Position numbers and translations under genes: made by a program
The notes under the pieces: generated by a model
Databases searched by the model: none
What the model was told of the DNA's origin: nothing
The model's input: only the letters and a program-made list of their open reading frames with translations
NCBI GenBank assembly: GCA_964452565.1
Contig: CAYVLY010000001.1
Span: forward strand, 14,638-78,637
Direction of reading: 5' to 3'
DNA from: an uncultured Gammaproteobacteria bacterium
GTDB lineage: Bacteria > Patescibacteriota > Patescibacteriia > UBA9934
Length of the DNA: 64,000 bases
Part shown: positions 1,006-28,103 of the stretch, in pieces
Layout: each line of letters begins with the position of its first letter
Numbering within the stretch: the first letter of the stretch is position 1

Positions 1006-4000
1006 ATGCAATCTAATAGGGGATTTTTTCGTGTTGATCGAAAAGACTGGGTAGCCAAGTTCATGGCTATTATCCTGGTTTTTATAATTACGAGCTCCAC
1101 GATTTTCTTAGCGTTTGACATTGATTTTGCAAATGCTACAGCGCCAACATTCTCAGTCATGGGATGGAAGGACGGACAAACAAAGGTTGTTCTGGAATTT
1201 GACAACCCTGTTGACAATGGGGCAGATTCAGCTCTGGACGCATCAGACTTTGTTGTATCAGGGGCAAATGCAATATCTATTAGCTCTGTTGATCATTATG
1301 CATGGGCAAATAGTATAATCATTACATTGTCAGGAAACCTTAATTCAGGGGGTGGAACAGATTTTACAATAGCTTGTGCTTCAAGTGCTGTTTATAATTC
1401 TGCTGATGAGGCATGTGGAGCAACAACCGTAAATGTTTATACTTCTGTTTCCGAAGATACAACTGGTCCGGTTGTCCAGCAGGTTGGAACAATGGGAACT
1501 GACGGTTTATATGTTGACTTTGATGAAATAGTTGCGCCAGCTACAATGGTTTCTGGAAACTTTACACTTACTACCTCTGCTGGTGGAGATGATTCAACGA
1601 TAACAGGATCCTCTGCATTTGATTTTGGAATAGATATACAAGCAAGTGGAGCAACTATTGCTTCAGGTTCTGGTAATACTATTCAAGTATCAACTAGCGT
1701 TACAGATATTTATGGCAATGCATCATTAGGAGAGACTATTACAATTTTGCCATCATTAGAGATTAGTGAGGTTAGTGTTGATGGAACAGGAAATGCAAAA
1801 AATGAGTTTATTGAGCTTTATAACTACGGCGATGCAGCTATCGATCTTTCAAACTTGAAGCTTCATATTTACACACACTCAGGCACATCTGATGTAAATG
1901 TGACACTCACACAGTTTGAAACATCAATTCCTTCAAATGGTTATTATTTGATTGGATCTAACTATTATTCATCTTCGACAGGGGTTGAAGCTGATGCTAC
2001 GTATTCATCTAGCGAGGCTACTATGGTTGCAGATGGGGCGGTTTATATTAGCTATTCAGCATCAGCAGACACAGATTTGATTGATATGGTTGGATGGGGA
2101 ACTTCTACAAAGAAAGAGGGTACCGCATTATCTAATGTAACAGCTGGTAGTAGTGTAGAGAGAATTTCTGATTTTGGTGCAACAGCTGCAACAATGGCCT
2201 CAGGTGGTATAGATGAATATAAGGGTAATGGATATGATGATTCAGAAAATTCAACAGATTTTGTAGTTCAAGCTACACCGGTTCCGCAAAATGCAAGCTC
2301 TGCAACAGAGTTTGCATATGGAACATCATTTAATGATGAGGGTGGAGATACATCAGCGCCTACTGTTTTGGATTCATACCCAAGTGCCTCTAGCGCATCA
2401 TATATACCTGCAGATCTGGACATGGCCGGAGTTTCATTTAGTGAGTCGATGGATGACACTTCTTTAACAACCTCAACGATCCAGCTATATCTAGATAGCG
2501 CACCAGGAGTTAATCTGTGTCAAACAGTGAGCTATGATTCAGCAAGTGGTTATGTGATGTGTTATATAAACAGTGCATCATTGCCACTAGCCAGCTCCGC
2601 GCATACTTTCAAAGTTACTACAGGAGCTACTGATATAACTGGAAATGCTCTTGGGTCAGAATATTCAGTAGGGTTTACACCTCTTTCAGGTGAATCATTT
2701 GATTCAACAGCAGCGCCTTATATGATTGGCTCATATCCAATGGATGGATCATCAAGTTTTCCACCAAGCTCAGACTACATGACGATTGATTTTTCTGGAT
2801 CTTTGAGTGCTGCGACTGTCACAACAAGCAATATTACTTTGACAAATCAGGATACAAGTGAAGCAGTTGTGCTTACAGGTATTTCAACACAGACGCTAGA
2901 AGATGCAGATGATTCAGTTATGATAGATGTTTCAGGTGTTACCCTTGGAACAGGAACTAATTATAGGTTGGCAGTTACATCTGATGTTACATCTGCCACT
3001 GGAGTCGCACTGGCGGCCTTTAACATTGATTTCCAAACTGACAGCACTAGCGATCTCACTGGACCACAGGTTATGGGAAGTGAGCCAAGCTCTGCAGAAA
3101 CTGGAGTTGCGGTTGGTAATACGGCGATTCTTATATCATTTGACGAGGGTCTTGACACATCTAGTGTAGATACTGATTCAGTTAAGCTTTATCAAAGTTC
3201 AGATGAAATGTCTGTCTCAGTTAATTACTATTCTTCCTATAATGAGATCGAGATTGTATCAGGGACAGTATTTGAGGCTAGTACGATCTATACTGTAAGA
3301 CTTGACGCTTCTGGAGCAGCAAATCAGATTACAAACACCTCAGGCCTGGCACTTCAAGATACAGACGGTGTTAGTGATAATTACTATTCATTTAGCTTTA
3401 CAACTGGATCAGCAGACTCGACAGCGCCAGATGTAATGTATGCGACCGCTACGCAAAGCAATGTTTCTGTTACATTTACAGAGTCAATGCGTGAATCAAA
3501 GATAACTGACCTGGATAACTGGTCATTAGAAAGTCCGGTTGGTACATCAGTCCCATTGTCGGCGTTAGCTGGAGGTTCTGTTAGTTGGGATGCGGATTCA
3601 TTTACTGCAGAAATTACAGGGATTAGTCTTACGGCAGATGATACATTTCAGATTACGGCCACAACTGCACTTCAGGACATGTCAGGAAATGCATTATCAA
3701 CAAGCAAGGTATTTGGTGGAACGGTTTTCGACTCTGCAGTTTATGGAGATTCAATGGGCCCAGATGATGGATTTAGTGGAGAGATCTACGATTTCCCAGC
3801 AGGATATAGTACTGATGATTTTGGATATGTGCCCCAGGCATCTGTATTCCCAATGAATGCGATGGCAGGTACATCATCCAACTATATTGTTGATTTCCCA
3901 ATTTCAGAGCAAATTAGATCAAGCGCAAATAACGGAAAGGTAGTCCTAACATTCCCTTCAGGATTTGATGTAACAAACGTTGCTGGAGTTACAGGTAACT

Positions 4001-7000
4001 ATGTAAACGATGACGTTAATGGTTATGCACCAGGAACAGTGGCTGTGAATAGTGTTACAGCAAACGTATCTGCAAGGACTGTAACTGTTGATTTTTCAAT
4101 AGCTACTACTTGTGGGTCAGGTAATACAGATCCTTGTGTATCAGGAGATGAGTATGATTACATTAGCTTTGATTTGGAGGGAATTGTGAATACAGATCAG
4201 CCAAGAGACTGGGAGACTTCAGGATATACAATTGATGTTAAGACAATGACAAGTACAACGGTTAATGAAACATTAACCTCAATGCCGTTTTATATAACAG
4301 CAGCTGGAGATAGTTCTTTGGTGGTTGATTTGACTGCTGCTGCTCAGACAAGTGGAACAACAGATGTTCACATCTGGTCTCCGACAACTGGTGAGATGGT
4401 TCAGGCTATAAACTTTGCGACTGAAGCAGATGGAACTGCTCAAACAACATTCACAGGATTGCCTGATGATTACTTTGAGGTTTGGACAGAAGACAGCATT
4501 CTTTCACTAGGAGGGGCTACTGATAACTTTCTGGGAGTGTCAGGTGATCAAGTTTATGTAACGGGCGCCACAACCAAGAGCATTACACTTCTTGCAACAA
4601 GTGGACTTACCGATGTTACTGTGAATATCACAGGGGCAACTGAAAAGTCTATAGATATATGGGCTAGTGGACCTAATGGATTCCAAGAAAAAGAAGTTGC
4701 AAGCACTGATGGATCTGATACATTAACCTTCAAGTTATCAGATGGAGATTGGTTCTTTGGTGTTGGTCCTCACATGCCAGACGATGGTGGATATATGATG
4801 CCTGAACCGCCAGACTATGTTATTTCACCTAATGATGTTCAAGTGAATGTAGATGGAGCAACTGTTACTGAAACTAGTGGAACAGCAAATGACGGTACAG
4901 TTGCATTTGCACTTACAGCAGCGGATTATGCTGTAGTAGTGAATGTTGTTGATGATTCAGGAAATGCAATAATGGACGCAATGGTTTATATGGACTCTAC
5001 CCAGGCTGGGTGGGGAACGTTTGGTCAAACTTCTGGAGCTGGATCAGCAACTTTAAATGTAAATGAAGGAACATATCGTGTTGGAGCATTCCTTGATGGT
5101 GTTCCACCGACTCGTGAGGTTCAAGTCAGAATAGATAGCACTGGAACAATATTCCAAGAAGGTACAGAGGTTTCAACTATCACACTAGAGCTTTCAAAGG
5201 GAGCCCAAGCTATCAGTGGAACGGTCACAGACGGAACAAATGCTGTATCAGGAGCATCAGTTCACGCATTTTGTACTGCAAACTGTGTTGGATACTTTGA
5301 TGCAGGAACTATAACTTCATCGAACGGAACTTACTCGCTTTATGTTGGAAATGGAACCTGGAAAGTTGAAGCATACATTCCAGGCTATGGTCCAACAGCA
5401 CAAACTACAGTAACAATAAACAATGCTGATGAAGATGGAATAAACTTAGCGCCAGACAGTACAGCTACGTTTAGAACTATTTCAGGAACAGTGTGCGAAG
5501 TGGCTGGCGGTGGATCTGATTGTACTGCGGCAACTGGGCTTGATGGAATTGAAGTTTATGCATGGAGCCCTAATGGAGGAAGTAACTTTGTACAAACTGG
5601 AGATGATGGAACTTATTCTTTGCGCGTCCCTGCTGCCTCAGGATACACGGTTGAGGCCTGGGACCCACACAGTGGACCACTTCCAATACTGACAAGTGTT
5701 GATACAACCTCTGCAAATCAAAGCAGCCAGGATATTGTTATTGACACACCAGAAACTGTAACGGTTAATCTTAAGGATTCATCAGGTTCTGCTGTGACCA
5801 TGGGTGAGGTATTTGTAGAGTTCTTTGATGATTCTGCAGATATTAGACAGCATTTATTTATTGAAAGTGCCAGCACTGCAGATATTGATTTACCTGAAGG
5901 GACTTATGATGTGTTTGTCTATACACATGGAGTTGAGGTTGATGAAAGCTCAGATGTATTAACAGACGATGCCGGTACAACAACAGTGTCAGCTGGAGTC
6001 TTGACAGTTGATGGAGCTGAAACAATGCAGATTCAGATGCCAGATCTAAGCACTGTATCAGGAACATTGACTGATGGAACAGATCCTATTACCAATGCTT
6101 ATGTTGAGCTTTCTGATTCGACTAATGGTGTATATATTGGAACTGAGACAGATTCATCAGGAGATTATTCAATTTCAGTGCCAGATGGAACATATCAGGT
6201 AAATGCTTTTAACCCAGGTCTAGTTCTAACTCCAGAAACTATAACTGTGGCAGGTGCTAATGTTGTAAATACTGATCTCGCAGGTTCAATATCTGACCAA
6301 ACAATTAGCGGTACTATCACAGATTTGAATGGTTCAGCTGTTCCATATGCCTTTGTTGAAGCTATAAAAGAAGGTGGTGGATTTACTGCAGTTCAAGCTG
6401 ATGCTGATGGAGAATATTCATTGCCAGTAGATGATGGAACATGGGAGCTAGCTGCAATTGGACATGGATACGATGCTGTATCAGTAGCAACAGAGGTATC
6501 TATCAGCGGAAGTTCATCAACATCAAACGACATTCAGTTTACTACGCTTGCAACTGGACTTAATGAGCCTACTATAAAATCAATTACTCCAGCAGATGGT
6601 GGTACAGTACAAGATTCAGATCTAGGGCTTACTGTGAGCATTCCAGGAAATGCAACAAGTAATTCTGAAAGCGCGGGAACTGTTACTGTAAAAGAGACAA
6701 ATAATGTTGTAAATACTGCAACAGTGGATGTGATTGGAAATGGATTTGAAGTATCAATGGTAGATGCTGGAGGAACAGTTCTTTCTTCAGGATTTGATGA
6801 AGAGGTAACAATCACACGAACTATATCAGTTGTAGACCTAGTAGCAGCAAATAGTATTGATACATATGCAGAAGCAGAAGATCTGACAATTTCATACTTC
6901 TCAGGAAATGGAACATGGATTCCAGAAAACACAACAACAACATATCTTGATGCAAGTGGTGATACAGTTGCATCACCTGCGACAGATTTGTCAAATGTTA

Positions 7001-8187
7001 CAGATGTGCAATTTACAATGGCTGTAGATCACTTTACTGTGTTTTCTATCACGGTCCCATCTGATGGGCTTGCACCAGCAGCGCCAACAGGTGTTGCAGT
7101 CTCTGATAATATGCTGGGAGGTGTACTAGTTTCATGGAGCGCTGTAACTACAAACTCAGATTCTTCAGCAATTTCAGATTTGCTTGGATATGAGGTGTAT
7201 CGCGATACTAGCGCTGGTGGTTCGTTTACAACACAGGTAAATACAGCGGATGTTCTCACCACATCGTTTACCGATTCTACTGTCTCGGTTGGAACAACAT
7301 ATTATTATAAGGTTACTGCAGCAGATACAGGTGGTCTTGAGTCTTCAAAGTCAACTGCTTCAAGTGGTATTGCAGCTGCAGCCGCAAGCCCGGCTGCTTC
7401 AAGTGGAGGTAGTAGTAGCTCGTCAAGTTCTGATACTAGCGATGATGAAGATGACGAGGTAGAAGAAGTTATAGAAACTGAAGAGGACGAAGAAGAGAGT
7501 GATTCAGAAGCTTTATCAGACATAGTGTCAGAGCTATATCCATCGATCGAAGATGCAGAAGCAATGTTGCCAGAAAGTACAGATATTGGGGATCTAGTAA
7601 AATCAGAATCATTATCAACGGTATATGTATTAGGTGGTGATGGAAAGCGACATCCATTCCCTAATGAACTCACATTCTTCTCTTGGTACACAACATTTGA
7701 GAGTGTGAAAGTTGTATCAGATTCTGACTTAAGTTCAATATCTCTAGGAGGCCCTGTGCGAGTTCGTCCAGGAACTTGGATGATAATGATTCAAAGTGAT
7801 CCAAAAGTCTATGCAGTGGAGCCTGGTGGCGTTATACGATGGGTTGAGACTGAAGAGGTAGCAACGGCGTTGTGGGGAGATACATGGAATCAAAAGATTA
7901 TAGATGTAGAACCAACATTCTTTAATAAGTACACAATTGGAGAGTCAATCTCAGATTCAACACTACATCCGCTCGGATCAGTTGTGCGATCGTCAGATGA
8001 CTCTGCATATTATCTTGCAGAAGATGGAACGATTAGATTGTTTGAGGATGAAGATGCTGTTCGTGATAATAATATTCAAACAAGGTTTGAATTACATGCA
8101 ACAACAGAAGATCTGGCAAAAACGATTGGGGATGTAATCTCTGGGCTAGAAGATGTGCTATTCATCTATCAAGACATTGGACGATAG
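1006..8187 (+). CDS. Giant (2393 aa) secreted/surface-anchored protein: N-terminal signal anchor, lamin-tail domain (LTD), multiple CarboxypepD_reg-like and Ig-like beta-sandwich repeats, FN3 domain, poly-Ser/acidic linker, conserved C-terminal ~150-aa module
   Basis: Single uninterrupted ORF. N-terminal TM segment (VAKFMAIILVFIITSSTIFLAF). LTD signature NEFIELYNYGDAAIDLSNLKL. Repeated ISGTVTDG...YSL..DGTY modules. FN3 segment GYEVYRD...YYYKVTAADTGGLESS. Linker SSSSSSSDTSDDEDDEVEEV. C-terminal STVYVLGGDG...WGDTWNQKIIDVEPTFF shared with the 37.4-43.8 kb paralogs. Confidence 0.8.
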   Translation: MQSNRGFFRVDRKDWVAKFMAIILVFIITSSTIFLAFDIDFANATAPTFSVMGWKDGQTKVVLEFDNPVDNGADSALDASDFVVSGANAISISSVDHYAWANSIIITLSGNLNSGGGTDFTIACASSAVYNSADEACGATTVNVYTSVSEDTTGPVVQQVGTMGTDGLYVDFDEIVAPATMVSGNFTLTTSAGGDDSTITGSSAFDFGIDIQASGATIASGSGNTIQVSTSVTDIYGNASLGETITILPSLEISEVSVDGTGNAKNEFIELYNYGDAAIDLSNLKLHIYTHSGTSDVNVTLTQFETSIPSNGYYLIGSNYYSSSTGVEADATYSSSEATMVADGAVYISYSASADTDLIDMVGWGTSTKKEGTALSNVTAGSSVERISDFGATAATMASGGIDEYKGNGYDDSENSTDFVVQATPVPQNASSATEFAYGTSFNDEGGDTSAPTVLDSYPSASSASYIPADLDMAGVSFSESMDDTSLTTSTIQLYLDSAPGVNLCQTVSYDSASGYVMCYINSASLPLASSAHTFKVTTGATDITGNALGSEYSVGFTPLSGESFDSTAAPYMIGSYPMDGSSSFPPSSDYMTIDFSGSLSAATVTTSNITLTNQDTSEAVVLTGISTQTLEDADDSVMIDVSGVTLGTGTNYRLAVTSDVTSATGVALAAFNIDFQTDSTSDLTGPQVMGSEPSSAETGVAVGNTAILISFDEGLDTSSVDTDSVKLYQSSDEMSVSVNYYSSYNEIEIVSGTVFEASTIYTVRLDASGAANQITNTSGLALQDTDGVSDNYYSFSFTTGSADSTAPDVMYATATQSNVSVTFTESMRESKITDLDNWSLESPVGTSVPLSALAGGSVSWDADSFTAEITGISLTADDTFQITATTALQDMSGNALSTSKVFGGTVFDSAVYGDSMGPDDGFSGEIYDFPAGYSTDDFGYVPQASVFPMNAMAGTSSNYIVDFPISEQIRSSANNGKVVLTFPSGFDVTNVAGVTGNYVNDDVNGYAPGTVAVNSVTANVSARTVTVDFSIATTCGSGNTDPCVSGDEYDYISFDLEGIVNTDQPRDWETSGYTIDVKTMTSTTVNETLTSMPFYITAAGDSSLVVDLTAAAQTSGTTDVHIWSPTTGEMVQAINFATEADGTAQTTFTGLPDDYFEVWTEDSILSLGGATDNFLGVSGDQVYVTGATTKSITLLATSGLTDVTVNITGATEKSIDIWASGPNGFQEKEVASTDGSDTLTFKLSDGDWFFGVGPHMPDDGGYMMPEPPDYVISPNDVQVNVDGATVTETSGTANDGTVAFALTAADYAVVVNVVDDSGNAIMDAMVYMDSTQAGWGTFGQTSGAGSATLNVNEGTYRVGAFLDGVPPTREVQVRIDSTGTIFQEGTEVSTITLELSKGAQAISGTVTDGTNAVSGASVHAFCTANCVGYFDAGTITSSNGTYSLYVGNGTWKVEAYIPGYGPTAQTTVTINNADEDGINLAPDSTATFRTISGTVCEVAGGGSDCTAATGLDGIEVYAWSPNGGSNFVQTGDDGTYSLRVPAASGYTVEAWDPHSGPLPILTSVDTTSANQSSQDIVIDTPETVTVNLKDSSGSAVTMGEVFVEFFDDSADIRQHLFIESASTADIDLPEGTYDVFVYTHGVEVDESSDVLTDDAGTTTVSAGVLTVDGAETMQIQMPDLSTVSGTLTDGTDPITNAYVELSDSTNGVYIGTETDSSGDYSISVPDGTYQVNAFNPGLVLTPETITVAGANVVNTDLAGSISDQTISGTITDLNGSAVPYAFVEAIKEGGGFTAVQADADGEYSLPVDDGTWELAAIGHGYDAVSVATEVSISGSSSTSNDIQFTTLATGLNEPTIKSITPADGGTVQDSDLGLTVSIPGNATSNSESAGTVTVKETNNVVNTATVDVIGNGFEVSMVDAGGTVLSSGFDEEVTITRTISVVDLVAANSIDTYAEAEDLTISYFSGNGTWIPENTTTTYLDASGDTVASPATDLSNVTDVQFTMAVDHFTVFSITVPSDGLAPAAPTGVAVSDNMLGGVLVSWSAVTTNSDSSAISDLLGYEVYRDTSAGGSFTTQVNTADVLTTSFTDSTVSVGTTYYYKVTAADTGGLESSKSTASSGIAAAAASPAASSGGSSSSSSSDTSDDEDDEVEEVIETEEDEEESDSEALSDIVSELYPSIEDAEAMLPESTDIGDLVKSESLSTVYVLGGDGKRHPFPNELTFFSWYTTFESVKVVSDSDLSSISLGGPVRVRPGTWMIMIQSDPKVYAVEPGGVIRWVETEEVATALWGDTWNQKIIDVEPTFFNKYTIGESISDSTLHPLGSVVRSSDDSAYYLAEDGTIRLFEDEDAVRDNNIQTRFELHATTEDLAKTIGDVISGLEDVLFIYQDIGR

Positions 8188-8198
8188 AATTCAATCAG

Positions 8199-8260
8199 AA
8201 ACAACCGCCCAAAAGGCGGTTGTTTTGCTTTAAGCAGTGAACCCCGCCAAGTGGCGGGGG
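8199..8260. terminator. Back-to-back rho-independent terminators between convergent genes
   Basis: Hairpin aaacaaccgcc-caaaa-ggcggttgttt plus T-run for the + gene (8199-8230). Hairpin ccccgcc-aagt-ggcgggg (8242-8259) lies 20 nt past the stop of the minus-strand gene. Confidence 0.65.
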
Positions 8261-8279
8261 TGTGAGGTAGTAGAGACCT

Positions 8280-8765
8280 CTAGGTGAGGCGTGCATCGAG
8301 GTCAATCAGCCGGGGCGCTCCAGGTCCTTGCCACCAGAGCATTCCTCGAGACTGCTCAGGAGTCAGTACGACCTGTGCGATAGCCCATTCGAAAAAAGGG
8401 TAGTCGTCGAACCGTTCGAACATTCCTCCAATGCACCAGCGGATGAGCATGACGAGCTGAGCATCCTGACGCCTGCGATAGAGCTCAATCCAGGTCATGT
8501 CCTGGCCTGCTGGCATACGGGTGTAGAACGCACGATATCTTCTGGGGTACTGTGCGCGACCATCCCGCCACCAGAGCCAGTCTTCAGGACCGAGGTTGAC
8601 TCGCTCACCGAGGTGAAGAGGAAGAAGGTGCAGGCGGGCGCATCTAAGGTCGGGGGTCTCCTGCCATAGCAGGGGTACCCGGACCCCATCGACCTGGGCC
8701 ACGAGTCGATTCCAAAGCCTGCCCATTTTGTGATCATCAGTTTCTATCTGTGCGGTGATATCCAT
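8280..8765 (-). CDS. Hypothetical Trp-rich protein in a ~60% GC island (probable horizontally acquired ORFan)
   Basis: 161-aa ORF. GGAGG lies 7 nt upstream of its ATG (reverse complement of 8771-8777). Own terminator hairpin downstream. GC is well above the flanking ~40%. No motif recognised. The antisense ORF 8328..8669 is taken as a GC-compositional artefact. Confidence 0.45.
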   Translation of the reverse strand: MDITAQIETDDHKMGRLWNRLVAQVDGVRVPLLWQETPDLRCARLHLLPLHLGERVNLGPEDWLWWRDGRAQYPRRYRAFYTRMPAGQDMTWIELYRRRQDAQLVMLIRWCIGGMFERFDDYPFFEWAIAQVVLTPEQSRGMLWWQGPGAPRLIDLDARLT

Positions 8766-8852
8766 GGTTCCTCCAGGTTTGGGTGCTATATTTAGCTTAG
8801 CAGCGGATCGTAAAGCTGTAAAATCGTTTTAGCTGTGATACCATAAGCCCGT

Positions 8853-9659
8853 ATGAAGCCCAGCCAAAAGAAGGATCTCAATTATATAAAAGATAAGGTC
8901 GACAACATGGTTGTTGATTTGGGTGAGCGGATTGAGGATCTTGTCAGTATCACGCCAGTGGGGTCTTGCGTAGAGGGTGGTGAGTACTCTGAGTTAAATG
9001 ACTATGATCTTGTTTTTGTTTTTAATACACTAAAAAAGAACTATTACGACAGGGTTGTTGATGAATTGAGCAAACTTGCTAAAGAACTTTCAACAGATGA
9101 GATCGGTGTTATTGTCGAGACTCGTGCTGGATCAGTAAAAACAAAAACAGATAGGCCGATCACTTTTCAAATCCATGCAGTTTTTTTAGATCGGGCTGGG
9201 CTTCGATTATATGAAGATGAGTGTCCAATTGTTTTATATGATTGGTATCGATCAGATTCCATATATGGCAAGCGTCTTGATGAGATTTCATCATGCCAGA
9301 GAACTGTTGAAGATGTGATTCGGTCTTTTGGTGGGATAAATCAATGGGAGAATCGATTACGATCTAAGATGCAGGGTGCGTATAAGATTGTTTTTCAAGA
9401 GGACGGTTCGTATACAGTTAAAGATTCCGTGTTTCCAGTTGAAGATTGGCAAATGGAATCTGAGATCAAGAAAGCAGTCACAATGCCCATGAGGCATCTC
9501 TATAAGGTTGTAAAAGAAAAGAATGAGCGCCCGAGTAATGAAGAGCTGCAAGTGTTTGCACAAGAGACCTTTAATATTGATCTTGAGAAGATAACAACAG
9601 TTGATCTTGCATTAGAGGCCTTGGAGACAATAAAGAAAAGGCTAGATAAAGAATTATGA
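8853..9659 (+). CDS. Pol-beta superfamily nucleotidyltransferase (268 aa), NTase core plus C-terminal helical domain
   Basis: Motif VGSCVEGGEYSELNDYDLVFVF is the G[SG]x9-13Dh[DE]h NTase signature. Size and two-domain layout resemble ANT/Lnu-type or minimal CD-NTase-type enzymes. Family not resolvable by eye. Confidence 0.6.
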   Translation: MKPSQKKDLNYIKDKVDNMVVDLGERIEDLVSITPVGSCVEGGEYSELNDYDLVFVFNTLKKNYYDRVVDELSKLAKELSTDEIGVIVETRAGSVKTKTDRPITFQIHAVFLDRAGLRLYEDECPIVLYDWYRSDSIYGKRLDEISSCQRTVEDVIRSFGGINQWENRLRSKMQGAYKIVFQEDGSYTVKDSVFPVEDWQMESEIKKAVTMPMRHLYKVVKEKNERPSNEELQVFAQETFNIDLEKITTVDLALEALETIKKRLDKEL

Positions 9660-9696
9660 AAGAAGAATCAAATTAAGTAATTTTAACCTATAAATT

Positions 9697-10071
9697 ATGT
9701 CAGGATTTTACGTTGATCTTGAGCAAAAGACGCTTGAGAATGAGAATTACCGCGAGGTTTTGTTTACTGGACCTAAAAGTCAGTTGGTTGTAATGAGTAT
9801 TGAGCCAGGTGATGAGATTGGAATGGAAGTTCATGAGGATCATGATCAGTTTATACGTATCGAGGCGGGTGAGGGAAAAGCAAGTATCGACGGCGAGGAA
9901 TTTGATTTTAAAGACGGCGGTGCGATAGTCGTACCGGCAGGCGCAGAGCATAACGTCTGGAACGTATCGGGCGAATCGAAACTAAAGCTTTATACAGTCT
10001 ATACACCGCCAGAGCATGCTGATGGAACGATACACGCGACAAAAGCAGATGATACAGGGCATGGTCATTAG
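9697..10071 (+). CDS. Cupin-domain protein (cupin_2)
   Basis: Cupin motif 1 G-x5-HxH-x3-E-x6-G (GMEVHEDHDQFIRIEAGEG) and motif 2 PAGAEHNVWN. Terminator hairpin at 10078-10110. Confidence 0.7.
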   Translation: MSGFYVDLEQKTLENENYREVLFTGPKSQLVVMSIEPGDEIGMEVHEDHDQFIRIEAGEGKASIDGEEFDFKDGGAIVVPAGAEHNVWNVSGESKLKLYTVYTPPEHADGTIHATKADDTGHGH

Positions 10072-10077
10072 TTCAAT

Positions 10078-10110
10078 AAAAATCGCGGTTCGATCGAATC
10101 GCGATTTTTT
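10078..10110 (+). terminator. Rho-independent terminator
   Basis: aaatcgcg-gttcgatcgaa-tcgcgatttttt. Confidence 0.7.
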
Positions 10111-10324
10111 GGTTGAACCAACCCAGCTGAACCAAGTTTTCTTGACTTTTTGGTAGTTCCCCCCTATTTTTAAAGGGCTGTTGGGGGTGTCTGACCCCCT
10201 ACGGAAGACAGCGCGTTGTTGGATGCTGGGGCATTTTCGACAGTTCGGTCGATTTTGTTCTGTCTGCCAAGGCGCGTATTCCAACTTGTTGCCTGCACGG
10301 CAGGGGCAAGGAGAGGAGTCGGAA

Positions 10325-11380
10325 ATGAGTGAGAGCAAGTCGGGCGCTCAGCCCATGGTCTCAGTCCCAGAGTGGTGGTTCCACCGTAATATCATGGTGA
10401 TTCCAGTCATCATCCTTGCCCTCTGCATCCTTTTGGTCGTTGTGATGGCTGGTATGTTTGCAGCGTGGCCAGAAGCGATAGATTCTGAGGGTGGCAGGCT
10501 AGCTATCATCTGGGGTGTCACAATCCTAGCAGTTGCAGGTATCTTGACTGCCTTTCTGGGTTTCCATAGGAGATACTGGCAAAGGCGCGAGGCAGCGATC
10601 GTGGCCAACTATGATCTGCAGATCGCAGAGCTGCGGGGGGAGTTGAGGGAATTTGATCAGACCAGGCAGAAGCTCGGGAAGGCGCGCGAGGCCTTGCGCG
10701 GCGCTCAGAAGGAGCATAACGAGCTTTGGAAGTGCATCAAGTTGCTGTTCGAGCGATCAGTAGACTTCCAGGACTTCACCCGCTGGCTGCTCGATGATCC
10801 TGAGCTGCTTGACAAGCTCTGCCAGCGAGTAGGTTCTGCCAATGTATCCGGGTTTGCTGAGATGCTCGAGCAGGCGCATGAGAGCTTCAAGCCTGATCGG
10901 GAGGAGTGGCGGCTGCGCAAGTCACGGGAAGAGCAAGAGCTGGATCGCAAGCGTAGACGGTCGCACGTATGGATGCGCCGACTCATGCACCAGATTTTCT
11001 GGGCAGCCGGACAGCTGGAAAACATGAACCGTGCATCCCCAGAACTTCTTAGGGCGGTACGGCGCGTTCAGGATGAGCTCGTGCTCAAGGTACTCGAGGC
11101 GCTCGCTGACGTGATCCATGTCCACCGCGAGCTCAACGGGCTTCACGAAGCTCACATCGACAGCGGCGACGCCTGGCCCACTGACCTGCCACAAGAGGGT
11201 GTCCAGTACGTGCTGGCAGCTGGGCACAACGACACCGAGGATCTCCGCTGTATCTTGCGGGGTCTACAGGATCACAGAGCCGGCGATTTGGAGGCTCATA
11301 TGGCTGGCATGCCCGAAGATGTCCGCTGGTACCTCATGAAGGTGCTGCTCGGAACGACCGGGCCTGAAATTCCAGAATAG
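10325..11380 (+). CDS. Hypothetical two-TM membrane protein with long coiled-coil/charged C-terminal region, in a ~60% GC island
   Basis: Start chosen at ATG 10325 (GGAGAGGAG 5-13 nt upstream); the ORF track starts at 10181. Two hydrophobic helices (IMVIPVIILALCILLVVVMAGMF; LAIIWGVTILAVAGILTAFLGF) then an R/E-rich helical region. Terminator hairpin at 11403-11431. Confidence 0.5.
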   Translation: MSESKSGAQPMVSVPEWWFHRNIMVIPVIILALCILLVVVMAGMFAAWPEAIDSEGGRLAIIWGVTILAVAGILTAFLGFHRRYWQRREAAIVANYDLQIAELRGELREFDQTRQKLGKAREALRGAQKEHNELWKCIKLLFERSVDFQDFTRWLLDDPELLDKLCQRVGSANVSGFAEMLEQAHESFKPDREEWRLRKSREEQELDRKRRRSHVWMRRLMHQIFWAAGQLENMNRASPELLRAVRRVQDELVLKVLEALADVIHVHRELNGLHEAHIDSGDAWPTDLPQEGVQYVLAAGHNDTEDLRCILRGLQDHRAGDLEAHMAGMPEDVRWYLMKVLLGTTGPEIPE

Positions 11381-11436
11381 CTCGCCTCAAAGGCGATTCG
11401 TACAGCCTGCCCCTTGCGGCAGGCTTTTGGCTTAAA

Positions 11437-11474
11437 ACAAAAAACCGCAGTTCAATAGAATCGCGGTTTTTTGA
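11437..11474. terminator. Bidirectional terminator hairpin
   Basis: aaaaccgc-14 nt loop-gcggtttttt. Serves the minus-strand RRM gene (T-run on the reverse strand) and possibly + strand transcripts. Confidence 0.6.
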
Positions 11475-11480
11475 TGAGGA

Positions 11481-11735
11481 CTAGTCCTCCTTAGGTCGCG
11501 CAACGTTTACTGAGATTGGACGACCCATGAAATCCTTGTCGTTCAAAGCCTCAATAGCAGCTTGTGCTTCCTCAGCTGTGCCCATTTCTACAAAACCGAA
11601 TCCTCGGCTTTTGTTTGTGAATTTGTCCATCACAATTCGGGCTGAAGTAACTTCTCCGAACTCTGCGAAAAGGTTCTTAAGATCCTCATCGCTAGCATCC
11701 CAAGAGATGTTACCTACAAATAGCTTGTTTTCCAT
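11481..11735 (-). CDS. RRM-type RNA-binding protein (glycine-poor, single RRM)
   Basis: RNP-2 LFVGNI and RNP-1 RGFGFVEM in an 84-aa protein. Confidence 0.9.
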   Translation of the reverse strand: MENKLFVGNISWDASDEDLKNLFAEFGEVTSARIVMDKFTNKSRGFGFVEMGTAEEAQAAIEALNDKDFMGRPISVNVARPKED

Positions 11736-11864: not shown

Positions 11865-11978
11865 GCAGAACCCAGAATGCAGAACCCAGAATACAGTCTA
11901 GTTATGCTGCGTTCTGCTTTCTGCGTTCCAGCCGACGCTACTTCGTAGCTATGGCCGGCAGGCTGTATTCTGCGTTAT
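11865..11978. repeat. Palindromic repeat element, family A (cagaacccaga units in an imperfect inverted arrangement)
   Basis: cagaacccagaatgcagaacccagaatacag ... ctgcgttctgctttctgcgttc ... ctgtattctgcg. Related copies at 30376-30392, 32041-32134, 32690-32782 and 48041-48068. Confidence 0.7.
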
Positions 11979-11989: not shown

Positions 11990-12295
11990 ATGAAAAAACA
12001 TCCTATTTTAATTGGGCTATTGCAGGCCCTTGGCGTGGCTGGTTATGTGGCCATTATTAGTGTAGTTCTTTACGGACTTGAAAATATCTCAGCAGAACCG
12101 CCATTATATCTTTCAATGGTTACTATACTATTGCTGTTGGTTTTTTCAGCAGCTGTAACTGGGTCATTAATCTTTGCATATCCCGCAGTGCTTGCAATGA
12201 ATAAGAAGGTCAAAGCCGCACTTCAGGTGCTTGGGAGCACTCTTGCTTGGTTGGTGGTATTTCTGATCATATTCTTGCTCATCGTTTTGATTTAA
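11990..12295 (+). CDS. Small integral membrane protein (3 TM), hypothetical
   Basis: 101 aa, three hydrophobic helices. Immediately upstream of the ZIP transporter. Confidence 0.5.
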   Translation: MKKHPILIGLLQALGVAGYVAIISVVLYGLENISAEPPLYLSMVTILLLLVFSAAVTGSLIFAYPAVLAMNKKVKAALQVLGSTLAWLVVFLIIFLLIVLI

Positions 12296-12299
12296 CATT

Positions 12300-13100
12300 A
12301 TGACATTGCTGTACATAATTATTGCGACAGTTGCAGTTAGTTTAATTTCATTCATTGGAGCTTTGACATTGAGCTTCTCAAAAAAGGTTCTTGAGAAGAT
12401 AATCTTGATCCTTGTTGCCCTTGCTGCTGGAGGATTGCTAGGAGGCGCGTTTTTGCATCTGATTCCAGAGGCGCTTCATGAGTTCTCAGAAAGTCGTGGT
12501 CATGAGGCATCATCGATGATATTTTTATTTGTACTAATCGGCTTTTGTCTCTTTTTACTAACTGAGCAGTTCCTACATTGGCATCACGGGCATCATGGTG
12601 AGCATTGCTGTGGAGATGGGTGTGATAAACGTGCCAAAAAAGAACTGTCAACATTGATTTTATTTGGTGATGGAATTCATAATCTTATCGATGGATTAGT
12701 GATCGGAGCGGCATTCATGGTTAATATCGAAACCGGAATCATCGCAACCATCGCTGTAGCGCTTCATGAGATTCCACAGGAGATTGGAGACTTTGGTGTA
12801 TTGGTTTATAGCGGGTTGAAGCGCGCAAAGGCACTTATGTTTAACTTTCTGTCCGGACTTACTGCAGTGCTTGGTGGTGTGATCGGCTTTTTCTTTGCAC
12901 AAGCGTCAGAGGGTATTGCGCTCTACATTATTCCGATCGCTGCGGGCGGCTTTATTTACTTGGCAGCGTCTGATCTTATTCCAGAGATTAAACATGGCGA
13001 AAGTCTTAAGCGTATGGCAGTGCACTTTGGAGTTATGCTTCTGGGAATAGCGGTTATGTATTTATTACTTCACATTCCTTTTTTAGAGCATTCACATTAA
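12300..13100 (+). CDS. zupT: ZIP-family divalent metal transporter (ZupT-like)
   Basis: ZIP signature HEIPQEIGDFGVLV. His-rich loop HWHHGHHGEHCCGDGC. Eight predicted TM helices. Confidence 0.85.
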   Translation: MTLLYIIIATVAVSLISFIGALTLSFSKKVLEKIILILVALAAGGLLGGAFLHLIPEALHEFSESRGHEASSMIFLFVLIGFCLFLLTEQFLHWHHGHHGEHCCGDGCDKRAKKELSTLILFGDGIHNLIDGLVIGAAFMVNIETGIIATIAVALHEIPQEIGDFGVLVYSGLKRAKALMFNFLSGLTAVLGGVIGFFFAQASEGIALYIIPIAAGGFIYLAASDLIPEIKHGESLKRMAVHFGVMLLGIAVMYLLLHIPFLEHSH

Positions 13101-13107
13101 ATGAAAT

Positions 13108-13143
13108 AAAAAACACCCGTGAGATAATCGCGGGTGTTTTTTT
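13108..13143. terminator. Bidirectional terminator between convergent genes
   Basis: acacccg-tgagataatcg-cgggtgt flanked by A-run and T-run. Confidence 0.7.
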
Positions 13144-13147
13144 GACC

Positions 13148-13621
13148 TTATTTAACAGTTGAGTATTCAGCTACAAGCTCAAATCCGAGATCATCTGAAG
13201 TTAGAACCAGCATATCATCGACTAGTTCGTATTCATATTCAATGGTCTCAAACCCAGCAACAATGTCACAGTTATGCTCAGTTATCGTCATTGTCATAAG
13301 AGCACCTTCCACAAAAAGAGTACCTGAGTTAGTACAATCTCCTGATACACTTGTGAAAGCTCCATCTTCCAAAGTTAGCATTGCTTCTGACTCATCAAAT
13401 AGGTCGCCATTAGCATATGTTGCAACCTTTTCCCAGGTTCCATAGTAGTCTTCTGCATCTGCGATAGCATCTTCCTCAGCTTCGATTTCGACTTCTACCT
13501 CTGTAGTCGTTGTGTCTCCAACTTCAACATCTTCAGAAGTATCTACATCTGCAACTGGACCACATCCAGCTAGAGTTAGAGCGAAAATCGCAAAGAGTCC
13601 GAATAATTTAAGTGAACGCAT
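13148..13621 (-). CDS. Putative lipoprotein, acidic, function unknown
   Basis: Signal peptide with lipobox LTLAGC. D/E-rich mature protein. Confidence 0.6.
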   Translation of the reverse strand: MRSLKLFGLFAIFALTLAGCGPVADVDTSEDVEVGDTTTTEVEVEIEAEEDAIADAEDYYGTWEKVATYANGDLFDESEAMLTLEDGAFTSVSGDCTNSGTLFVEGALMTMTITEHNCDIVAGFETIEYEYELVDDMLVLTSDDLGFELVAEYSTVK

Positions 13622-13761
13622 ATAGTTTGTTATGAATAATCATCATAAGTTTATCAGTTGTTTTTAGATCTTGCCAGATTGATTGGTAAAACGATTTAGT
13701 TATCCACGTTTTGCCGCGAAGAAAAGACAAGAACTGATATAATAAAAACAAATAAATACAT

Positions 13762-14130
13762 ATGGCAAAGAACAAAAAAATTCTCATCGTGGAGGACGAG
13801 AAGTCTATTGCAAATGCTCTCAAGTTGAAACTTGAGAACTCTGGCTATGAGTCAGATATTGCGCTAAATGGCAGGGAGGCACTCGAGATGCTCGAGGGCA
13901 ACGGCTATTCATTGGTTCTCCTTGACCTGGTCATGCCAGTCATGGATGGCTTTGGTGTATTGGAGGAAATGAAAAAAAAGGGGATCACAACTCCTGTGCT
14001 CATCTCTACTAACTTGAGCCAAGAGGAAGACGAAAAGCGTGCAAAAGAGCTTGGTGCAAAAGACTTTTTCGTAAAGTCTGATACGCCGATTACGGAAGTA
14101 ATAAATCAAGTAGATAAGTACTTAGACTAA
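13762..14130 (+). CDS. Stand-alone response-regulator receiver domain (CheY-like)
   Basis: ILIVEDE ... LVLLDLVMPVMDG ... KDFFVK. Paralog of 22555..22929. First gene of the T4P cluster. Confidence 0.8.
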   Translation: MAKNKKILIVEDEKSIANALKLKLENSGYESDIALNGREALEMLEGNGYSLVLLDLVMPVMDGFGVLEEMKKKGITTPVLISTNLSQEEDEKRAKELGAKDFFVKSDTPITEVINQVDKYLD

Positions 14131-14133
14131 TGC

Positions 14134-15885
14134 ATGGTTGAGGAGGGTAAGATTTTAGAGCTTCTTGTTGCCCAGCACTATGTATCAAAAGAAGATGTAG
14201 AAAGTGCTAAGCGTGCAGCAGCAACTGGTCAAATGAGTGAGCTGGAGTTTTTGCTTTCCCAGAATATTGTTACCAAGGATCTTGTCGGTCAAGCAATTGC
14301 AGAAAATTATAAGGTGATGTATGCGGACCTTAATACATATATTCCAACAAAGGATCAGGTTTTGAAGATACCACTTATAGTTGCACAAAAGTATCGCACT
14401 GTTTTGTTTAGCGCAGACGGCAAGGGAACTATTGTTACAACAGATGATCCAACACAAACAGGTCTTTTGCCTGCAGTTCAAAAAGCGCTAGGTGTTAAGG
14501 ATGTAAAGATCGCATTTTCACTCCCAGATGATATTGATCAGGTAATGCTCTACTATAAGAAGCCATTGAAAGAGCGGTTAGATAATATCATCGAGACCCA
14601 CGATAAGATTACACCAGATATTGTGACTGAAATTCTGGATGAAGCAGTTGTGTTAAGGGCTTCTGATATTCACTTTGAGCCACAAGAAAAGCAGGTGTTA
14701 ATTAGATATCGTATTGATGGTGTGATGCAAATAGTAGCAACACTTAAGAAAGATCAATACATGAATGTAGTGAATCGCGTTAAGGTAATGTCTCATCTTC
14801 GCACTGATCAGCATTTAGCAGCACAGGATGGCGCGATTCGATATAAAACACCAAAAGAGACTGTTGATATTCGTGTCTCAATTGTTCCGATTTTTGATGG
14901 TGAAAAGGTTGTGATGCGACTGCTCTCTGCTTATGCACGTAGCTTTGCATTGAGTGATTTAGGGCTGCAGCCCAAAGATGAGAAGATGATCGTTGCTGAG
15001 TCAAAAAAGCCGTTTGGGATGATTCTTGTAGCCGGCCCTACTGGATCTGGAAAAACAACAACACTTTATGGTGTTTTAAAGCTTTTAAATAGGCCTGAGG
15101 TAAATATTGCAACCATTGAGGATCCAGTTGAGTACAAAATCCAGGGAGTGAACCACATTCAGGTTAATATTCAAACTGAACTAACATTTGCACGTGGATT
15201 GCGCTCAATTGTTCGTCAAGATCCAGATGTTATTCTTGTTGGAGAGATTCGCGATGTAGAGACTGCAGAGATATCAGTTAACGCAGCATTAACTGGGCAC
15301 CTTCTCCTATCAACATTCCATGCAAACGATGCTGCAACATCGATTCCGCGGCTTTTGGATATGAATATTGAGCCGTTCCTGCTTTCATCAACATTGCAGG
15401 CGATTTTGGCTCAGCGACTTGTGCGAAAGATTTGTGATCATTGTCGACACTCAGAGGTTGTTTTAAATGCTGAACTTAAGAGTCGATCTGCTGTTGCAGC
15501 TCAATTTTTTGGCGCAAAAGCAACGCTTTATAAAGGTAAGGGATGTGTGAGTTGTGCAGATACTGGGTATAAGGGTCGAGTGGGAATATTTGAGTTGATC
15601 AGAATGACATCTGAGATGCAGGAGTTAATCATGACAAACCCAACCTCGCAGGATGTATGGAAGTTAGCTATGAGCCAAGGTGCAAGTTCAATGTTTGAAG
15701 ATGGGATTCAAAAAGTTAAAGAAGGATTAACAACGATCGAAGAACTGGAGCGTGTTGTTGCGCCTCCAATTTATTTACGTTATGGCAAAGCCCAAGGGCA
15801 AAATCAAAAAGCCGTTGCCCAAGCCCCAAGTAAAGAAGCCGGTCAAGGAATTGAAAAAAACAAAGCAGAAGCAGAGAAAGCGTAG
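14134..15885 (+). CDS. pilB: Type IV pilus assembly ATPase PilB (GspE family)
   Basis: N-terminal GspII_E_N-like domain, Walker A GPTGSGKTTT, Asp/His boxes, tetracysteine CDHC...CVSC. A ~45-aa low-complexity C-terminal tail (KAQGQNQKAVAQAPSKEAGQ...) extends beyond the usual ...ELERVV end. Confidence 0.9.
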   Translation: MVEEGKILELLVAQHYVSKEDVESAKRAAATGQMSELEFLLSQNIVTKDLVGQAIAENYKVMYADLNTYIPTKDQVLKIPLIVAQKYRTVLFSADGKGTIVTTDDPTQTGLLPAVQKALGVKDVKIAFSLPDDIDQVMLYYKKPLKERLDNIIETHDKITPDIVTEILDEAVVLRASDIHFEPQEKQVLIRYRIDGVMQIVATLKKDQYMNVVNRVKVMSHLRTDQHLAAQDGAIRYKTPKETVDIRVSIVPIFDGEKVVMRLLSAYARSFALSDLGLQPKDEKMIVAESKKPFGMILVAGPTGSGKTTTLYGVLKLLNRPEVNIATIEDPVEYKIQGVNHIQVNIQTELTFARGLRSIVRQDPDVILVGEIRDVETAEISVNAALTGHLLLSTFHANDAATSIPRLLDMNIEPFLLSSTLQAILAQRLVRKICDHCRHSEVVLNAELKSRSAVAAQFFGAKATLYKGKGCVSCADTGYKGRVGIFELIRMTSEMQELIMTNPTSQDVWKLAMSQGASSMFEDGIQKVKEGLTTIEELERVVAPPIYLRYGKAQGQNQKAVAQAPSKEAGQGIEKNKAEAEKA

Positions 15886-15961
15886 AAAGGGTCCGCACAT
15901 TCCTTGGTACAAAAAACTGACCGCAATCTCGTTTGGTGGTGGAGCGCAAAAAGAGTATGTC

Positions 15962-17792: not shown

Positions 17793-17793
17793 T

Positions 17794-20220: not shown

Positions 20221-20222
20221 CT

Positions 20223-21204: not shown

Positions 21205-21235
21205 TATAATGAAAACATATTATTGAACTATTTTT

Positions 21236-21685: not shown

Positions 21686-21686
21686 T

Positions 21687-22133: not shown

Positions 22134-22143
22134 TAACTATCAT

Positions 22144-26701: not shown

Positions 26702-26739
26702 ACACGTAATGAGCGTGTCTGTTTTATTTTGAGTTCTAA

Positions 26740-26761: not shown

Positions 26762-26776
26762 ATAGGGGAGGTTTTC

Positions 26777-28052: not shown

Positions 28053-28103
28053 ATAATTACCATCCCGACGTTAGGACCTGCCTGCCGGCAGGCAGGGGGA
28101 TCC

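Follow-up and report, generated by a model that had tools for sequence, protein, structure and literature searches.

The DNA considered here, called the window below, is a 64-kb stretch of contig CAYVLY010000001.1 (assembly GCA_964452565.1), and the subject is a set of GC-rich open reading frames (ORFs) that lie in it. The source organism is Parcubacteria/Uhrbacteria-like, and the sources of the homologues of a flanking core protein name them Parcubacteria, Uhrbacteria or Patescibacteria. In this clade, the GC-rich ORFs are genuine accessory genes that code for proteins. In a scan of GC content in 200-nucleotide (nt) windows (mean 0.44, standard deviation 0.056), regions at or above 0.53 were taken as islands, and such islands were found at 8151-8800, 10151-11500, 23951-24550, 28051-28550, 30451-32150 (with 32451-32750), 47951-48850 and 50501-50800. 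An earlier note on this DNA had listed five isolated GC-rich ORFs, all of which are present at the coordinates that it gave. What it had read from three of them was also borne out: the protein of 8280-8765 is Trp-rich (10 Trp in 161 amino acids, aa), that of 10325-11380 has two transmembrane (TM) helices plus a coiled coil, and that of 48127-48867 consists of pentapeptide repeats (Pfam Pentapeptide, E 1.6e-25). A sixth isolated unit, a GGDEF gene on the minus strand at 23854-24495 (Pfam E 1.6e-32), had been overlooked. Together with a three-gene island at 30.4-32.8 kb, the window therefore holds at least nine GC-rich single-gene units. The window proteins that were tested have 100%-identical copies on two Logan contigs from SRR8146440, which are independent assemblies. 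This indicates that the GC mosaic is not an assembly artefact, and a chimera is ruled out.

As read from the sequence, each GC-rich ORF is a separate transcription unit with its own promoter, a leader with a Shine-Dalgarno sequence, an ATG start and a GC-hairpin terminator. The promoters are near-consensus (TTGACA/TTGACT-N17-TAnAnT), for example at 10142-10170, 30432-30460, 31433-31461 and 32136-32164, and promoters were also read upstream of the units at 28201, 23854 and 48127. At the 3' end of a cassette, a GC-rich hairpin lies 20-45 nt downstream of the ORF and is followed by TTCAnTGCTTTT or a close variant, often with (A/T)CGTAC(A) before it. The sequence TTCANTGCTT has three exact copies in the 64 kb (8232, 48070 and 50514), every one directly behind the hairpin of a GC-rich gene. 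The terminators of host genes differ in type, being built from an A-tract, a stem and a T-tract. The motifs of the modules can be summarized as TGTAAAACTAnnnCGTCGAAT for promoter and leader and as CGTACA-hairpin-TTCAnTGCTTTT for the terminator. The cassettes occupy gaps between conserved core genes in either orientation, next to cupin, RRM, L28, UvrD, ClpB, L21 and similar genes, and five of the nine run against the local gene direction; among the 40 host genes of that stretch, two do so (Fisher p 0.0012). They are autonomous, moron-like expression units with a sigma-70 consensus promoter, a conserved and partly structured leader and a shared terminator type.

Cassette 1 lies on the minus strand. 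Its ORF (8280-8765, GC 0.58, GC3, the GC content at third codon positions, 0.62) is without known domain, the upstream region (8766-8852) contains the Shine-Dalgarno sequence GGAGGAA, and the terminator (8232-8259) is the hairpin CCCCGCC-ACUU-GGCGGGG followed by TTCACTGCTT. Cassette 2, on the plus strand, has a promoter at 10142-10170 that was found by consensus scan (TTGACT-17-TATTTT, with the equivalent TTGACA-17-TATATT in the related contigs L002 and L127), a structured 5' leader of three hairpins at 10180-10324, an ORF of 351 aa at 10325-11380 (GC 0.57, GC3 0.67) and a terminator at 11404-11432, which reads AGCCTGCC-CCTTGC-GGCAGGCT and then TTTGGCTT, with TTCGTACA in front. The ORF is also flanked by two bidirectional terminators, T1 (10078-10110) and T2 (11436-11470), which are direct copies of about 80% identity with a compensatory stem change. 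Terminators of this type recur in L002 (about 30-65) and L135 (about 920-955 and 1115-1150), so they represent a dispersed terminator family, and their reading as a target-site duplication was dropped. The remaining isolated cassettes are all on the minus strand. Cassette 3 (23854-24495, GC3 0.61) encodes a membrane-anchored GGDEF diguanylate cyclase with a TM helix and an intact GGEEF motif, and its promoter lies near 24573-24601. Cassette 4 consists of a promoter and leader at 28492-28598 (TTGACA-17-TAATAT, the leader beginning with GCGTCGAAT), an ORF of 96 aa at 28201-28491 (GC3 0.77) and a terminator at 28145-28195, in which ACGTACAC and the hairpin ACACCCCGCCTCGACGGGGTGT are followed by TCATGCTTT. 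The 246-aa pentapeptide-repeat protein of cassette 8 (48127-48867, GC3 0.74) is preceded by a promoter TTGACA-17-TAGCTT within 48868-49001, and the 3' module (48029-48126) is made up of CACGTACG, the hairpin CCACGCC..GGCGTGG, TTCAATGCTTTT and a CAGAACC heptamer array. Cassette 9 (50500-50788) holds an ORF for 74 aa with two TM helices (50564-50788) and the terminator GCCGCCC..GGGCGGC, then TTCACTGCTTTTTT. Long antisense ORFs of up to 469 aa were seen inside GC-rich genes, at 48176-48925(+), 31493-32020(-), 8328-8669(+) and L127 69-1478(+). None is conserved from one genome to another, and they arise as a side effect of the rarity of stop codons in GC-rich DNA; in L129 and L137, the wrong strand was picked by gene callers.

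The island at 30.4-32.8 kb was resolved into three promoter-to-terminator units in tandem, all on the plus strand. Unit 1 (30432-31424) comprises a promoter (TTGACA-17-TTAAAT), a leader, an ORF for a 270-aa protein with a TM anchor (30540-31352, GC3 0.80) and a terminator (31378-31424); for this protein, no family or viral homologue was found in Pfam, PHROG or IMG/VR. Unit 2 (31429-32134) has its promoter and leader at 31429-31491, an ORF of 155 aa at 31514-31981 (GC3 about 0.72) and, at 32003-32134, a module of 132 nt in which the terminator is joined to a copy of a repeat called family A, discussed below. Unit 3 (32132-32782) repeats this arrangement with promoter and leader at 32132-32194, an ORF of 144 aa at 32206-32640 (GC3 0.53) and the terminator with family A at 32651-32782. 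The proteins of units 2 and 3 both belong to what is here called family X. The promoter/leader modules of the two units (D12, 63 nt) are 84% identical and the terminator and family-A modules (D5, 132 nt) 98%; the ORFs between them are 24% identical as protein and 17-55% as DNA. Over the island as a whole, identity is 70-88% in the promoter/leader, 17-55% in the ORF and 97-100% in the terminator with family A. The composite junction of terminator and promoter at 32003-32194 is thus repeated at 84-98% identity around ORFs of 24% identity. The first of the family-X proteins starts with MGNSKSG (31514-31534), which matches the eukaryotic N-myristoylation consensus MGxxxS, probably by chance.

Two of the leaders are conserved in structure. 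The leader at 10180-10324 (145 nt) has counterparts at L002 126-273 and L127 1314-1460(-), and the same three hairpins are formed in all three genomes. A block of 26 nt is identical between the window and L002 and one base off in L127, the identity to L127 being 62-77% in 60-nt windows; the conservation goes far beyond that of the ORF downstream. The sequence of the helices P1 and P3 varies and the pairing is kept, and nine of the 49 predicted pairs show compensatory changes, a count that comes from three sequences only. The folding z values were -2.6, -1.3 and -3.5. No known RNA family was found in the window with Rfam: the leader has no match at the gathering score, and a GP_knot1 match on the opposite strand (E 0.17) is at chance level. 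Since its structure is conserved and it belongs to no Rfam family, the leader is a candidate for a new cis-regulatory RNA. A covariance model of it matched nothing else in the 142 kb of sequence examined, and of five metagenome matches to the leader pattern, three were rejected as chance resemblances within coding sequence. Three different ORFs share the leader start CGTCGAAT, and a near match, GCGTCGAAAA, stands in L135 before a gene that is distantly related to the 351-aa family. The other conserved leader is that of family X, which has a 5'-terminal hairpin GUCG...CGAC and a second hairpin that holds the Shine-Dalgarno sequence beside the AUG. It was found in the window (31462-31516 and 32165-32205, the latter copy retaining the first hairpin only), in L129 (1843-1900) and in L140 (1103-1157(-)), in front of proteins that are 21-32% identical. 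Both leaders may be stabilising or translational-control elements.

The composition of the cassettes deviates mainly at the third codon position. GC3 is 0.61-0.80 in the GC-rich ORFs, with 32206-32640 at 0.53, compared with 0.24-0.45 in about 50 host genes and 0.51 in two; GC1, GC2 and the Arg/Lys ratio (2.2 vs 0.77) are displaced less. The deviation therefore sits in codon usage, beyond amino-acid content, and the genes look foreign at the codon level; the alternative that the earlier note had named as refuting its view, a deviation explained by amino-acid composition, is not borne out. Relative synonymous codon usage (RSCU) correlates at r 0.63-0.91 between window cassettes and at about 0-0.4 with host genes. 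Cassettes in L001, L002, L124 and L129 correlate with the window pool at r 0.80-0.91 (host about 0), and five other genomes show coherent cassette codon usage (r 0.80-0.91 against the window pool). C is the third base in 0.40 of cassette codons and 0.13 of host codons, and third-position A and T are reduced about equally (0.12 and 0.17 vs 0.30 and 0.38 in host genes). Codon periodicity is strong (GC3 > GC1 > GC2), and NCG codons are under-used. GC3 is 0.64-0.92 in the cassettes of every related lineage and 0.53-0.92 across all cassettes, where 32206-32640 is intermediate in its codon usage. The cassettes form one compositionally coherent pool with GC3 of 0.6-0.9, which is restricted to the clade.

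Three causes of this codon usage were considered and rejected. Translational selection does not account for it, as the host genes for L21, L28, RRM, HU, YbaB and HPF favour NNC in two-fold boxes only. The highly expressed host genes avoid CCC, GCC, CTC and ACC, the C-ending four-fold codons that cassettes favour, and this indicates that cassette usage differs from the translational optimum of the host. Selection for mRNA structure was rejected on the basis of shuffled controls, which gave z values of 0.42 and -0.03 for two cassettes and 0.03 for a host gene. Adenine-specific mutagenesis, as by a diversity-generating retroelement, was rejected on the basis of the about equal loss of A and T. 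No reverse transcriptase and no template repeat of such a retroelement were found in the window; the sole Avd-like protein (34947-35303) is a stand-alone member of the 23S-rRNA-IVP family.

Related contigs revealed the same arrangement at three loci. At locus A, downstream of the cupin gene, L127/L124 have a cupin 89% identical to that of the window, and it is directly followed by a GC-rich homologue (GC3 0.75, 30-33% identical). L002 has the same GC-rich gene with leader and heptamer array in a context of 0.43 GC, and the 351-aa protein is 28-33% identical to its syntenic homologues in L002 and L124/L127. At locus B, between the genes for DUF6938 and UvrD, L129 (86% identical in DUF6938 and 84% in UvrD) carries one GC-rich gene with a GC3 of 0.92, whose product is 28% identical to that of 32206-32640 (E 6e-11) and whose promoter and leader are homologous. 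In L140 (75%), a GC-rich gene adjoining uvrD is 32% identical to 31514-31981 (E 2e-12) and has a near-identical leader. Locus C lies between an ATP-cone gene and rpmB/L28 and contains GC-rich ORFs of 96-112 aa in the window, L137 (86%) and L140 (75%), with GC3 of 0.77, 0.66 and 0.64. Here, the terminator hairpin ACACCCCGCCTCGACGGGGTGT is identical between window and L140 and near-identical in L137, and window and L137 have leader sequence in common; the proteins are beyond recognition (E 0.03-0.14). In the lower-GC relatives L130/131 (0.41) and L132/133 (0.37), the pairs cupin and RRM, ATP-cone and L28, and uvrD and DUF6938 are adjacent or separated by ORFans of host-like GC. At the site of the GGDEF cassette, L130 has no such gene beside its HU orthologue, which adjoins the RRM gene instead. 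A block of 12 kb in the window (11990-23674, with a ZIP transporter and type IV pilus genes) splits the RRM from the HU gene, which are adjacent in L130 (11810-12935); one edge of the block is a family-A palindrome and the other the GGDEF cassette. The cassettes thus occur at syntenic sites in clade members of 0.43-0.45 GC and are absent in the lower-GC relatives sampled.

The rates of change of the two classes of genes are far apart. Core genes of the window compared with L127/L129 have a synonymous divergence (pS) of 0.72-0.76, which is saturated, and a nonsynonymous divergence (dN) of 0.06-0.21; for cassettes, dN is 0.38-0.90. Neighbouring core proteins are 75-89% identical, and cassette proteins 28-33% or unrecognisable. 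With dN of 0.38-0.90 and saturated pS, fast evolution at dN/dS below 1 suffices for the divergence of the proteins. The cassettes have kept the same three loci and their regulatory flanks while the coding parts changed 4-14 times faster than the core genes or unrecognisably. If the cassettes are orthologous, their GC3 would not be an un-ameliorated relic of recent transfer.

Among 5.8e9 proteins, a single homologue of the 161-aa protein was found (P0002, 54% identity, dN 0.38, pS saturated), on the GC-rich contig L001, which is 1.3 kb long and carries two cassettes. A repeat, GGGGTCGGGCCGTKACTTCTAACATT, precedes each of these two cassettes (L001 1-26 and 586-611); it may correspond, in that genome, to the flank modules or belong to a GC-rich element. 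For the 351-aa protein, one word-indexed homologue was found, and a HMMER profile search of 1.84e9 representatives found four family members. The tblastn alignments of cassettes stay in one frame over 150-277 aa. Homology at the protein level has an E of 1e-27 to 1e-40, and motifs are conserved. The contigs L001 and L135 are short and give no clear genomic context. All homologues with context are GC-rich genes at the same loci in genomes of 0.40-0.45 GC with Parcubacteria-type neighbours. The ORFans have no relatives in Pfam, PHROG, PADLOC, PDB or IMG/VR, the last of which was searched by protein and by leader pattern. In a donor search against plasmids, the GGDEF and pentapeptide genes found matches of at most 37% and 38% identity, at the level of the domain only. 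No GC-rich cellular donor was found in the searches of 5.8e9 and 1.84e9 proteins. The GC-rich donor of the earlier note is therefore not supported, since the homologues of the ORFans are restricted to the same low-GC lineage, an outcome that the note itself had named as a refutation. Nor are the cassettes absent from close relatives, as a recent transfer would have it: homologous or positionally equivalent ones are present in L127, L129, L137 and L140, and they are absent only in L130 and L132.

Family A, which the earlier note had taken for the mark of a common acquisition route, is an inverted pair of heptanucleotide arrays, (CAGAACC)n or CAGAAnn and the complement, that can form a hairpin. 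A search for its motif CAGAACCCAGA found copies at 11866/11880, 30377, 32065/32079/32119, 32713/32727/32767 and 48057. The copy at 11865-11978 (CAGAACC/CAGAAnn vs CTGCGTT) adjoins no cassette, and a partial arm on the plus strand (30376-30392) lies at the left edge of the island. The positions given by the earlier note were correct, but the claim that the palindromes lie close to three GC-rich genes was generous, since the RRM gene separates 11865-11978 from 10325-11380. When placement was tested in the window by intergenic length, the association of family A with GC-rich genes was not significant (P 0.17-0.29). CAGAACC arrays lie directly 3' of the terminators of three window cassettes (31514 and 32206, which are copies of one module, and 48127), and L002 and L124 have them in the same place behind their homologues of the 10325 gene; the equivalent cassette of L140 is flanked by other heptamers, GTAGGTC and TACTTTT. 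A scan with CAGAACCCAGAANNCAGAACCCAG of one genome per prokaryotic species found at least 120 contigs with (CAGAACC)n, for which the chance expectation was estimated as about 0.07. Vibrio/Photobacterium, Opitutales, Bacteroidota, Acidobacteriota, Nitrospirota, Desulfobacterota, Chloroflexota, a Saccharibacteria metagenome-assembled genome and others are among the matches listed, where the arrays are intergenic and often at contig ends. With the array present across many phyla, family A was rejected as the end of a lineage-specific element. The heptamer arrays are common neighbours of the cassettes, and a role as their vehicle appears unsupported. As for the common route that the earlier note had proposed, the genes do have features in common, namely one codon regime, a common 3' architecture and, in some of them, shared promoter/leader modules.

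Arrays of period 7 were found with TRF at 11866, 11907, 28925, 32065, 32101, 32713, 48044, 52963 and 54514; nearly all are intergenic, two extending a few bases into the adjoining ORF. Other tandem arrays of 7 nt and, in one case, 9 nt (28925-28955, 52963-52993, 54514-54546 and 58581-58603) lie just upstream of the genes for DUF6938, YbaB, an amino-acid permease and murC. These are ordinary genes, and short tandem arrays are a general intergenic trait of this genome.

The reading that is tentatively preferred here, at a little less than an even chance, is that a clade-specific pool of moron-like cassettes is shuffled through conserved regulatory flanks. The flanks would act as portable regulatory modules and would offer homology for the duplication, replacement and shuffling of ORFs, as the promoter-early stem-loop (PeSL) cassettes do in T4-type phages. 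The pool in which the ORFs evolve, possibly a GC-rich replicon of the clade that has escaped sampling, would determine the GC-rich style, and after arrival the ORFs would drift slowly to host composition (GC3 from 0.92 to 0.53). The cassettes appear to be under relaxed or diversifying selection. Their products are of the following types: a TM/coiled-coil protein, a TM-anchored ectodomain, a 2-TM peptide, a membrane GGDEF cyclase, a pentapeptide-repeat protein and small soluble proteins. Judged by domains only, they look like envelope, signalling and interaction proteins, and a partner- or envelope-facing accessory set is plausible. Several points weigh against shuffling from a pool. Vertical descent is the simpler way to account for one family staying at one locus with conserved flanks; neither the window nor the related contigs yielded a GC-rich replicon, phage, integrase, transposase or reverse transcriptase; the AlphaFold2 models of the 161-aa and 270-aa proteins have a pLDDT of about 50, which is low confidence; and for phylogeny and the order of gain and loss, the relatives are short metagenomic contigs only.

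Vertical inheritance would mean a single gain at the base of the clade, with GC kept high by GC-biased gene conversion at recombination hot spots bounded by the conserved flanks or by selection for C- and GC-ending codons; this is rather unlikely, though it deserves to be taken seriously. In its favour, cassettes are found at three shared loci, two of which show recognisable family homology, and leaders or terminators are homologous in genomes whose core genes have saturated synonymous sites; it also agrees with GC3 of 0.64-0.92 in every lineage and with the failure to find an external element. Fast evolution combined with GC bias is also the classic signature of biased gene conversion. Vertical descent needs, however, a force that keeps GC high in place, and the GC3 excess known from recombining bacterial genes is only a few percent, compared with 0.35 to 0.75 here. 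Cassette usage is off the host translational optimum, given that highly expressed genes avoid CCC, GCC, CTC and ACC; there is no excess mRNA structure (z about 0); GC3 at one locus varies widely (0.53 in the window vs 0.92 in L129); and the flanks of the tandem units are 98% identical around ORFs of 24% identity. Somewhat more doubtful is a second 'codon dialect' that the clade would have maintained, for as long as synonymous sites take to saturate, in a dedicated class of hyper-evolving genes between conserved structured leaders and terminators, kept in place by a locus-specific GC-biased process or by transcript selection. Such a process may be strongly biased gene conversion, or mutagenesis targeted to cassette hot spots, and in the most extreme form of this idea, GC-rich mRNAs or proteins may be tuned to the GC-rich partner cell of an episymbiont. 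The two leading models, the shuffled pool and vertical descent, differ in one unobserved item, namely a GC-rich replicon or a local bias.

The remaining explanations are all improbable. Recent gain from a high-GC cellular donor (an episymbiont's host, for example) along a route marked by family-A palindromes fits the codon-level GC shift and Arg-rich composition, the random orientation, the empty sites in more distant relatives and the CAGAACC arrays that follow terminators in three window cassettes and in the homologues of L002 and L124. It is nevertheless improbable, given that homologues outside the clade were not found in either protein search, the GGDEF and pentapeptide genes match at domain level only and the same families are already in relatives at synonymous saturation. 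Promoters and leaders in common with the equivalent cassettes of relatives are unlike capture from an unrelated cellular donor, the under-use of NCG codons is unlike typical high-GC bacteria, and (CAGAACC)n is widespread with a placement in the window that is not significant. The cassettes are no recent imports from a sampled high-GC cellular host, and the family-A palindromes are a common neighbour and not a vehicle. Slightly less probable still is that the cassettes are morons or leftovers of an element that had integrated, be it a phage, a plasmid or something integron-like. Such an origin would explain promoter-gene-terminator units of deviant composition and the resemblance of the conserved terminator-promoter junctions to PeSLs (PMC2839356, PMC4122927). 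The units are single and dispersed between core genes over 42 kb, however; each has its own promoter and none an attC-like site, no phage, integrase or transposase genes were found in the window, and IMG/VR gave no matches. No transposase and no terminal inverted repeats around the units, as of a transposon, insertion sequence or miniature inverted-repeat element, were found in the window either. It is scarcely credible that the ORFs are non-genes, whether they arose by chance in GC-rich repeats or non-coding RNA or are the product of a chimeric assembly. GC-rich DNA does yield long ORFs on both strands (48176-48925; L127 69-1478), and some positional counterparts are without detectable protein similarity, but the codon periodicity, the Shine-Dalgarno sequence and ATG directly behind the leaders, the Pfam domains in two units, protein homology at E of 1e-27 to 1e-40, the identical proteins from independent assemblies and the lack of an Rfam match all argue against this.

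The earlier interpretation was thus partly supported, and the tempting inference that GC-rich islands reveal the identity of a high-GC host is corrected. ORFans of atypical GC are usually dismissed as recent foreign DNA on its way to host composition. In this case, several diverged genomes have GC-rich genes at the same loci, with conserved regulatory RNA and DNA, a coding sequence that changes almost freely and a codon style still distant from that of the host. If this is true on closed genomes, the cassettes would be a tractable case for what maintains compositional heterogeneity in a tiny genome, be it an unsampled mobile pool, biased gene conversion or selection. They would also be a fast-evolving and probably partner-facing gene set of uncultured bacteria of the candidate phyla radiation (CPR) that can be spotted from sequence alone, and they would add two new candidate cis-regulatory leaders.

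Some further features of the window were noted. A 39-nt inverted repeat of terminator hairpins (51290-51328 and 52009-52047, 97% complementary) surrounds an ORFan of 209 aa (51376-52005) that is without Pfam domain and has a GC of 0.49 and a host-like GC3 of 0.39. A gene for a DUF559/Vsr-like endonuclease (26729-27130, GC 0.35) lies between copies of a GC-rich palindromic repeat, CTAACCCCTTCCTTACGAAGGAGGGGATAGGGGAGGTT, with copies of 38 nt at 26736 and 27175 and related copies at 61030 and 61067; the endonuclease and the repeats may together form a small selfish unit. At 55811-56110(-), a stand-alone gene for a GIY-YIG nuclease (GC 0.34) lies beside a repeat-rich spacer of 0.62 GC (55704-55810) and is also present in the relative L132 (1287-1571). 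Three tandem paralogous genes for surface proteins of about 700 aa each, Big_5/Kre9-like, occupy 37357-43813, with blocks of 300 nt that are 80-92% identical at a distance of 2.17 kb. Together with a protein of 2393 aa (1006-8187), they form a large surface repertoire.

Horizontally acquired islands of Patescibacteria, morons, PeSLs and heptamer repeats are already known. A full-text literature search found no description of persistently GC-rich, hyper-divergent cassettes with conserved structured leaders at syntenic loci of low-GC CPR bacteria. The intergenic heptanucleotide direct repeats of cyanobacteria are known as short tandemly repeated repetitive (STRR) sequences. The window arrays resemble them in being tandem 7-nt units that are almost entirely intergenic and differ in that they are often an inverted, hairpin-capable pair just 3' of terminators. 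Intergenic heptamer repeats have also been described as the TAACTGA repeats of Beggiatoaceae (PMC4679880) and as a heptamer excess (PMC4692102). Integron cassettes are likewise small and rich in ORFans, with an imperfect palindrome behind; in contrast, the window units have their own promoters and are scattered without an attI array, their palindrome is a heptamer array and not an attC site, and no integron integrase or recombinase was found in Pfam scans of the window and related contigs.

In Patescibacteria, hundreds of horizontally acquired islands make up as much as 13% of the genome length, and most were exchanged between Patescibacteria (PMC12455944). The cassettes share with them compositionally atypical accessory genes in ultra-small CPR genomes that are missing from more distant relatives. 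They differ in being single genes with shared regulatory modules, in having higher instead of lower GC, in the failure to find a donor and in a GC-rich state that persists at syntenic sites despite saturated synonymous divergence.

The cassettes also resemble units known from phages. The morons that Hendrix and colleagues reportedly described are independent promoter-gene-terminator units of deviant composition between prophage genes. Like morons, the cassettes are single genes, mostly of unknown function, with their own promoter and terminator and a deviant composition, in either orientation between conserved genes. Unlike morons, they lie in a cellular chromosome amid housekeeping genes, with no phage genes found nearby, and persist at the same loci across diverged species with flanks that are conserved and ORFs that diverge extremely fast. 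The PeSL cassettes of T4-type phages mediate the modular shuffling of ORFans (PMC2839356, PMC4122927), and the likeness lies in a conserved composite of terminator and promoter, here D5 and D12, around small ORFs that are unrelated or highly diverged. PeSLs belong to the hyperplastic region of a phage, whereas the window cassettes belong to a bacterial chromosome and are known from their sequence alone, and the GC-rich codon regime is a feature of the cassettes that is absent from PeSLs.

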